NCBI RefSeq assembly: GCF_017348835.2
Contig: NZ_CP071375.1
DNA length: 64,000 bases
From: Escherichia coli
GTDB lineage: Bacteria > Pseudomonadota > Gammaproteobacteria > Enterobacterales > Enterobacteriaceae
Reading direction: 5' to 3' (one strand)
Both the position numbers and the translations under genes were made by a program. Below the pieces are notes generated by a model. The model ran no database searches, was not told the DNA's origin, and saw nothing but the letters and a program-made list of their open reading frames with translations. This document shows, piece by piece, positions 17,532 through 18,467 of this stretch (position 1 is the first letter of the stretch; every line of letters begins with the position of its first letter).

Positions 17532-18467
<936 letters not shown>

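Follow-up and report, generated by a model that had tools for sequence, protein, structure and literature searches.

A recurrent amber allele of gatY at a former Dcm site in wild Escherichia coli

The galactitol (gat) operon in the stretch of Escherichia coli DNA analysed here (64 kb in full, hereafter the window) has a stop codon about halfway through gatY, while the other gat genes and the repressor gene gatR can be read from end to end. The locus thus raises the question of whether this stop is an error, a laboratory construct or a natural allele and, if natural, how it arose and what it means for the use of galactitol.

An in-frame amber codon interrupts gatY

At window positions 17991-17993 the plus strand reads CTA, i.e. 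TAG on the minus strand, at codon 141 of the 284 codons of gatY. Apart from this one internal stop, the translation of 17559-18419 on the minus strand is unbroken GatY sequence, which bears out the initial annotation of two adjacent frames with contiguous GatY on either side of a single amber. Codons are numbered from the PGAP/K-12 start (MYVV, at 18413); with the upstream ATG (18419) taken as the start, the amber is codon 143. The gene and its parts are as follows.

17559..18413, minus strand: gatY pseudogene, 855 nt from the PGAP start MYVV (alternative ATG at 18419), from the translation, the PGAP label 'pseudogene, internal stop' in strains PE164 and F2_81 and the gapless 1GVF alignment
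17991..17993, minus strand: amber TAG, codon 141, CAG (Gln) in the wild type, from the sequence and the wild-type comparison
17990..17994, minus strand: former Dcm site, CTAGG here and CCAGG in the wild type, the changed base (17993) being the inner C, the target of Dcm; GGCGGC[C/T]AGGAAGAT
17991..18413, minus strand: N-terminal ORF, 140 codons plus stop, with D82/H83 and without H180, H208 and E142, from the ORF list, the translation and the 1GVF alignment
17559..17981, minus strand: C-terminal ORF from an in-frame GTG (codon 145) 9 nt past the amber, a separate 140-aa gene to gene callers, from the ORF list
17989..17992, minus strand: AGGA, Shine-Dalgarno-like, 7 nt upstream of the GTG and overlapping the amber, a candidate reinitiation signal; GGCTAGGAAGATGATGTGCAA

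Once glutamine is restored at codon 141, the product aligns with AgaY/KbaY (PDB 1GVF) without a gap over residues 1-283 (E = 1.5e-102, phmmer against PDB), and by megablast the gatY region shares at least 95% identity with the annotated gatY of about 5,100 genomes. Comparison with relatives, proposed in the initial annotation as a check, gives CAG at codon 141 in wild-type genomes such as 05-3629 (L003), K-12 and RM14723, and TAG in PE164 and F2_81; the wild-type string GGC GGC CAG GAA reads GGC GGC TAG GAA in the window. Judged by homology, gatY here is an ordinary pseudogene of the class II tagatose-1,6-bisphosphate aldolase family. It shares with GatY/KbaY (AgaY, 1GVF) both the full-length gapless homology and the gatYZABCD-gatR context, the window having the genes in that order with gatR adjacent. 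Functional members of the family are uninterrupted, whereas the window's gene is broken at residue 141, after 140 of 284 residues, so that the catalytic subunit is indeed cut at about half length. Accordingly, no single chain carries the zinc ligands H83, H180 and H208 together with the E142 loop. The exact 140-aa N-terminal product (P0001) occurs in 18 public contigs and the product of the C-terminal ORF (P0016) in 152.

The rest of the gat operon is intact

The remaining genes have uninterrupted frames of normal length and are annotated as intact in both PE164 and F2_81, again in agreement with the first reading of this locus. The entries below rest on the ORF list and the PE164 annotation.

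16268..17530, minus strand: gatZ, intact, 420 aa
15806..16258, minus strand: gatA, intact, 150 aa
15491..15775, minus strand: gatB, intact, 94 aa
14132..15487, minus strand: gatC, intact, 451 aa, one residue away from the allele of 05-3629
13044..14084, minus strand: gatD, intact, 346 aa
12165..12938, minus strand: gatR, DeoR-family repressor, intact, 257 aa (PGAP)

The GatR protein is WP_001295426.1 in all records compared, including strain 05-3629, which is wild type for gatY. Against the nearest wild-type relative, the remaining gat genes gave no clear signal of relaxed constraint, with a nonsynonymous to synonymous ratio of 20:68 versus 20:111 in the flanks. Because the lineages with the amber allele (hereafter TAG141) are young, intact neighbouring genes are uninformative in this respect. 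In another carrier, ERP001, a gatC frameshift stands beside the gatY amber (11936-13290 of L004), either a further stage in the decay of the operon or an error of assembly; the amber itself is confirmed in ERP001-like gatY on Logan contigs.

TAG141 is carried by independent wild isolates

The window is 100% identical over 18.8 kb to the genome of PE164 (NZ_CP114128.1; pig, diarrhoea and blood, Nanjing) and differs from it over the full 64 kb by 2 SNPs only, at positions 48784 and 49446; it must therefore stem from a very close relative or from a different version of the PE164 assembly. F2_81 (NZ_CP043542.1; pig rectal swab, Australia) has the same TAG and 3 SNPs relative to the window in 18.8 kb. 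In the RefSeq (PGAP) annotation of both genomes gatY is a pseudogene with an internal stop and the other gat genes are intact. A draft assembly from a different project (GCA_900196645.1, L025) has a gatY haplotype identical to that of the window. PE164 also bears the type III effector genes tccP2, nleB2 and nleF, and is therefore of an attaching-effacing pathotype; effector genes of this type characterise the pig-associated lineage of PE164, F2_81 and relatives. Taken together, the isolates with TAG141 are wild ones, from pigs, humans, a dog, a red panda and surface water; metagenomes have it too, and the finds span several continents.

These observations settle the two doubts raised in the initial annotation, namely a sequencing error and a laboratory allele. 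Since the amber is shared by PE164, F2_81, the independent draft and the 18 public contigs, with further wild lineages besides, both a sequencing error and a laboratory origin are rejected; we conclude that TAG141 is real and inherited in an internationally distributed, pig-associated lineage. A more specific form of artefact deserves mention, in which a systematic nanopore consensus error at the Dcm motif would mimic recurrence across unrelated genomes. Dcm motifs account for about 70% of consensus errors under default ONT models (PMC6591954), and the many 'frameshifted' pseudogenes in the PE164 record suggest residual assembly errors. An error of this kind should not appear in short-read assemblies and should show no link to lineage, yet the allele shows strict linkage to haplotype and follows haplotype rather than sequencing project: every listed genome of one haplotype carries it, with about 5,040 other complete genomes free of the TAG. 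Many draft NCBI assemblies and Logan contigs have the allele too (KTE196, GCA_000352925.1; GCA_900196645.1; SRR/ERR runs), and we take draft and read-run assemblies to be mostly short-read, the platform being an assumption; PE164 and F2_81, moreover, were sequenced independently on two continents. We therefore give the nanopore explanation practically no weight. The same holds for an engineered allele: amber mutations are common laboratory tools, but the distribution of carriers across wild hosts and many lineages already refutes this origin, whose probability we put at next to nil.

Other features of the window and of PE164

A ParD-family antitoxin gene at window positions 8071-8368 is annotated as frameshifted in the identical sequence of PE164, and the adjoining RelE/ParE-family toxin gene (8370-8666) is intact; either the toxin is inactive or otherwise neutralised, or the frameshift is an assembly error. 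Further along, three large DUF4132 genes stand in tandem at 37690-48177, all intact (yehI and two paralogues of about 1,010 and 1,266 aa), in a region with 199-nt repeats, 85% identical, at 37689-37886 and 41502-41699.

In the PE164 chromosome (NZ_CP114128.1) about 1.1 Mb is inverted, flanked by two lambdoid prophages integrated at tRNA-Ser genes (about 1.88-1.93 and 3.03-3.05 Mb); the junctions read mtfA/tRNA-Ser, prophage, hyaA on one side and dcm...yodB, prophage on the other. The type III effector genes of its prophages are tccP2, an espV fragment, nleF, nleH, nleC and nleB2. The 'frameshifted' flag on many prophage and other genes of PE164 suggests that indel errors remain in its assembly.

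TAG141 recurs across E. coli lineages

When 5,426 complete E. coli genomes were searched with a 61-mer around the amber, TAG turned up in PE164, F2_81 and ERP001 (red panda, Chengdu) only. That count was too low, since this 61-mer misses the K-12-type haplotype, set apart by a linked SNP at nt 396: with a second 61-mer built on the flank of K-12 type (G at nt 396), 47 more carriers came to light, mostly human clinical isolates, for a total of 50 in about 5,090 complete genomes. A single 61-mer is common to these 47 of the 50, which look to be one clone, with gatY identical to that of K-12 apart from the amber base. Several are labelled 'ST361' or '361', the sequence type being taken from the strain name only. 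In strain 'ST361' (NZ_CP103704.1) gatY is a PGAP pseudogene, gatZABCD and gatR are intact, and the sole difference from K-12 MG1655 gatY is C to T at nt 421. In ERP001, gatY is the wild-type allele of RM14723 plus C421T and one other change.

Among the public assemblies and read-run contigs that we fetched, TAG141 is found on 19 gatY DNA haplotypes, which fall into 7-9 groups when these are set more than 3-5 differences apart. Carrier haplotypes differ from one another as near to the site as nt 396 and nt 456, and a tract shared between them would therefore be shorter than 60 nt. By far the simplest reading of these haplotypes is that TAG141 arose independently in many wild lineages. Our literature search found no paper that ties ST361 or any other lineage to a gatY nonsense allele, or that describes the recurrence of TAG141.

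The changed base is the inner cytosine of a Dcm site

In the wild-type context (GGCGGCCAGGAAGAT) the base changed from C to T is the second C of CCAGG. Of the nonsense changes open to gatY, 17 are transition-type and 85 single-step, and TAG141 is one of them. The gene has three Dcm sites with six possible deamination products, and the only nonsense product among these six is TAG141. Both dcm and vsr are intact in PE164.

A close precedent exists in lacI, where changes of the second C of CCAGG that turn CAG into TAG are the dominant amber hot spots, roughly tenfold over-represented, in the account of Coulondre et al. 1978 given in PMC12606429. The event is the same in gatY, CAG (Gln) to TAG at the second C in a host with Dcm and Vsr, and in both genes the site leads the nonsense spectrum, roughly tenfold. 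The lacI hot spots come from a laboratory mutant collection, whereas TAG141 comes from natural populations and its dependence on dcm is presumed; in its prevalence, unlike that in lacI, clonal expansion and selection for gat loss act as confounders. Nor do Dcm-site nonsense alleles of gatC and gatD show a clear excess.

Deamination is the most likely origin of TAG141, to judge from the position and context of the change. The inner 5-methylcytosine of CCAGG would deaminate spontaneously to thymine, giving CTAGG, and the resulting T:G mismatch would escape very-short-patch (Vsr) repair; translation would then end after residue 140, without active GatY, and the allele would persist, loss of galactitol catabolism being tolerated and often favoured in the gut. 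Amber markers in lambda cI were used in the discovery of very-short-patch repair. A Dcm hot spot plausibly raises the supply of TAG141, and the allele as a whole is probably best described as a vertically inherited, recurrent loss-of-function allele generated by Dcm-site deamination, one of many independent nonsense alleles dispersed through gat in natural E. coli and Shigella.

A possible hot spot within a general loss of gat

How much of the prevalence of TAG141 belongs to the site itself can be approached through the other truncated products. On the K-12-like protein haplotype, stops at Q92, Q112, Q137, Q141 and Q146 are found in 21, 20, 37, 510 and 41 contigs, respectively, and stops at Q159, Q199, W200, Q219 and Q241 in 0, 0, 35, 16 and 9. 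The stop at Q141 is thus in 10- to 50-fold excess in contigs on the same protein haplotype, and in index blocks its count is 741 versus 41-75 for four other gatY alleles. The non-Dcm stops at Q92, Q112, Q137 and Q146 fall into 2-3 haplotype groups each, from fewer look-ups than were made for Q141 (7-9 groups); a recurrent nonsense allele in this gene can thus be accounted for without a Dcm hot spot.

In gatC and gatD, exact look-ups of truncated proteins showed that all 10 nonsense alleles tested exist in public data. Contig counts are 410, 91, 236 and 56 for the Dcm-site alleles versus 249, 99, 14, 360, 55 and 25 for the non-Dcm alleles, with no clear Dcm excess; since clonal expansions dominate such counts, this comparison neither confirms nor kills the hot spot. 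A predicted Dcm-site nonsense change in gatZ, the Q49 amber (CCAGG to CTAGG), was seen in 3 contigs (L064, L065 and L068), all of which also have the gatY stop at Q137. Deamination of the opposite strand at the same gatY site would give the synonymous codon CAA, which a single one of about 5,090 genomes has at codon 141 (NZ_CP028745.1, strain A30, baboon). It is so rare that the raw mutation rate at the site cannot be extreme; strand asymmetry of deamination could be an alternative account of this rarity.

Several other observations concern the same alleles. Q137, where CAA becomes TAA outside any Dcm site, is a second recurrent gatY nonsense position, on backgrounds 1 nt away from TAG141 haplotypes (L030, L032, L059-L068). 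A truncated GatY of 148 aa (P0010; ending QEDDVQVN, stop at codon 149, A22T haplotype) occurs in 92 contigs and implies a further clonal knockout. Several contigs from metagenomes and read runs end exactly one codon before a nonsense site (L018, L019 and L020 at gatY codon 140; also L075-L078 and L082-L088). Such ends may be breaks of the assembly graph at a polymorphic base, with wild-type and nonsense alleles in one sample; as contigs break at nonsense sites, counts of 'truncated proteins' are inflated. The prevalence of TAG141 is likewise inflated by clonal expansion and perhaps by selection. Given that other nonsense alleles of gatY, gatC and gatD are common and recurrent, a general loss of gat matters as much as the hot spot.

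Consequences for GatY activity and galactitol use

The N-terminal fragment lacks H180 and H208, the two C-terminal zinc ligands, as well as E142-D143-D144, a loop conserved across tagatose- and fructose-bisphosphate aldolases in our 1GVF search; GatY activity is therefore expected to be lost, and the 140-residue fragment can safely be taken as inactive as an aldolase. For E142 we presume a catalytic role, given its conservation and the class II aldolase literature. The galactitol-negative, possibly galactitol-sensitive phenotype put forward in the initial annotation is hence a plausible prediction, though not a certain one.

Bypasses could soften a Gat-negative phenotype. In PE164 kbaY and kbaZ are intact within a full aga cluster, and KbaY can act as a tagatose-bisphosphate aldolase in vivo once AgaR repression is lifted (PMC10101011). 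GatZ, in turn, is reported to epimerise tagatose-6-P to fructose-6-P (PMC11907403). KbaY/KbaZ and the GatZ epimerase are thus possible bypasses, and given the latter, gatY loss may not abolish galactitol use.

Effects on the downstream genes are a separate matter. Reinitiation at the GTG of codon 145 is plausible and might lessen polarity on gatZABCD, with residues 141-144 still missing from the restart product. In the 432 untranslated nt past the amber we found no C-rich, G-poor stretch of the kind expected of a Rho-loading region (C/G at most 1.4), so the gatY tail allows no prediction of Rho-dependent polarity either way. ARAGORN detected no tRNA gene within the 64-kb window, and no known recoding element was recognised.

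Weighing the remaining alternatives

The main competitor to Dcm-site deamination is random nonsense with no special mechanism: gat is often lost, and the stop at Q141 would owe its prominence to having arisen by chance at the root of a clone that has been sequenced very often. Among hundreds of thousands of sequenced E. coli each C-to-T nonsense site will have been struck repeatedly, and the recurrence of non-Dcm gatY alleles, the existence of all ten gatC/gatD alleles with no clear Dcm excess, the single 61-mer shared by 47 of the 50 complete genomes and the scarcity of the synonymous Dcm product all fit this account. It leaves to coincidence, however, that the change falls on the sole Dcm-site nonsense position among the 17 transition-type sites and that this very position has both the most haplotype groups and by far the most contigs; the mechanism, moreover, is textbook for this exact context and dcm is present. 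We regard random nonsense as unlikely, if still the alternative that deserves the most attention.

A different objection is that the split gene still works, either by read-through of the amber (a suppressor or a near-cognate Gln-tRNA) or by restart at the GTG and reassembly of the two half-barrels. The GTG/AGGA restart signal right after the stop is a good one, both the PE164 lineage and strain 'ST361' have kept gatZABCD and gatR intact, and the other gat genes show no excess of nonsynonymous changes over the flanks. Yet the restart product would be deprived of the conserved E-D-D motif, the window offers no tRNA gene, and suppressors are unlikely across 7-9 unrelated wild backgrounds. The gatC frameshift of ERP001 is a second lesion of the sort expected of a dead pathway, and the youth of the lineages means that intact neighbours say little. 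A working split gatY is accordingly very improbable, and we retain loss of function through deamination at the Dcm site as the preferred reading.

Selection on gat loss and significance of TAG141

Loss of gat function is well documented in E. coli. It sweeps in the mouse gut and relieves the inhibition that galactitol exerts on gat+ K-12 (PMC3945185), and the rate at which the locus becomes inactivated is about 1e-5 per generation (PMC5094792). Gat-negative enterobacteria were dominant in 5 of 9 humans sampled (PMC5850726), and gat mutations arise in parallel during the evolution of isobutanol tolerance (PMC3071312). The K-12 studies (Barroso-Batista 2014; Lourenco 2016; Sousa 2017; isobutanol tolerance) thus concern the same operon and the same repeated, parallel inactivation as found here. 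In them, IS insertions and small indels predominate, located in gatA, gatC, gatZ or the regulatory region of gatY, whereas TAG141 is a point nonsense change within gatY. Furthermore, gat is constitutive in K-12, whereas TAG141 strains have an intact gatR repressor, so they may be spared the expression cost behind selection in K-12. For TAG141 itself, selection is something we infer.

We also speculate, as an improbable extension, that codon 141 of gatY is a reversible mutational switch, turned OFF by deamination (CCAGG to CTAGG) and favoured back to ON by Vsr, which corrects T:G to C:G at exactly this CTAGG sequence. If so, Vsr would act on heteroduplexes that form when the locus recombines with a wild-type allele, or following replication errors; together with frequency-dependent selection on galactitol use in the gut, this would maintain a gat+/gat- polymorphism and could account for the intact gatZABCD and gatR.

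Leaving the switch aside, the preferred origin of TAG141 by Dcm-site deamination changes nothing in the annotation, since gatY already stands as a pseudogene in the RefSeq records concerned. The most informative points are the Dcm context and the recurrence, neither of which was part of the initial annotation. TAG141 would be a clean natural case of the textbook amber hot spot at a deaminating Dcm site, on at least 7-9 wild haplotype backgrounds and fixed in an apparent clone of 47 complete genomes. It also illustrates the breadth of natural gat inactivation. The change gatY C421T offers a simple marker, and a system in which methylation-driven mutation bias may be set against selection in the loss of a gut gene; it also bears on whether GatY is indispensable for galactitol use in E. 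coli, given KbaY and the GatZ epimerase.
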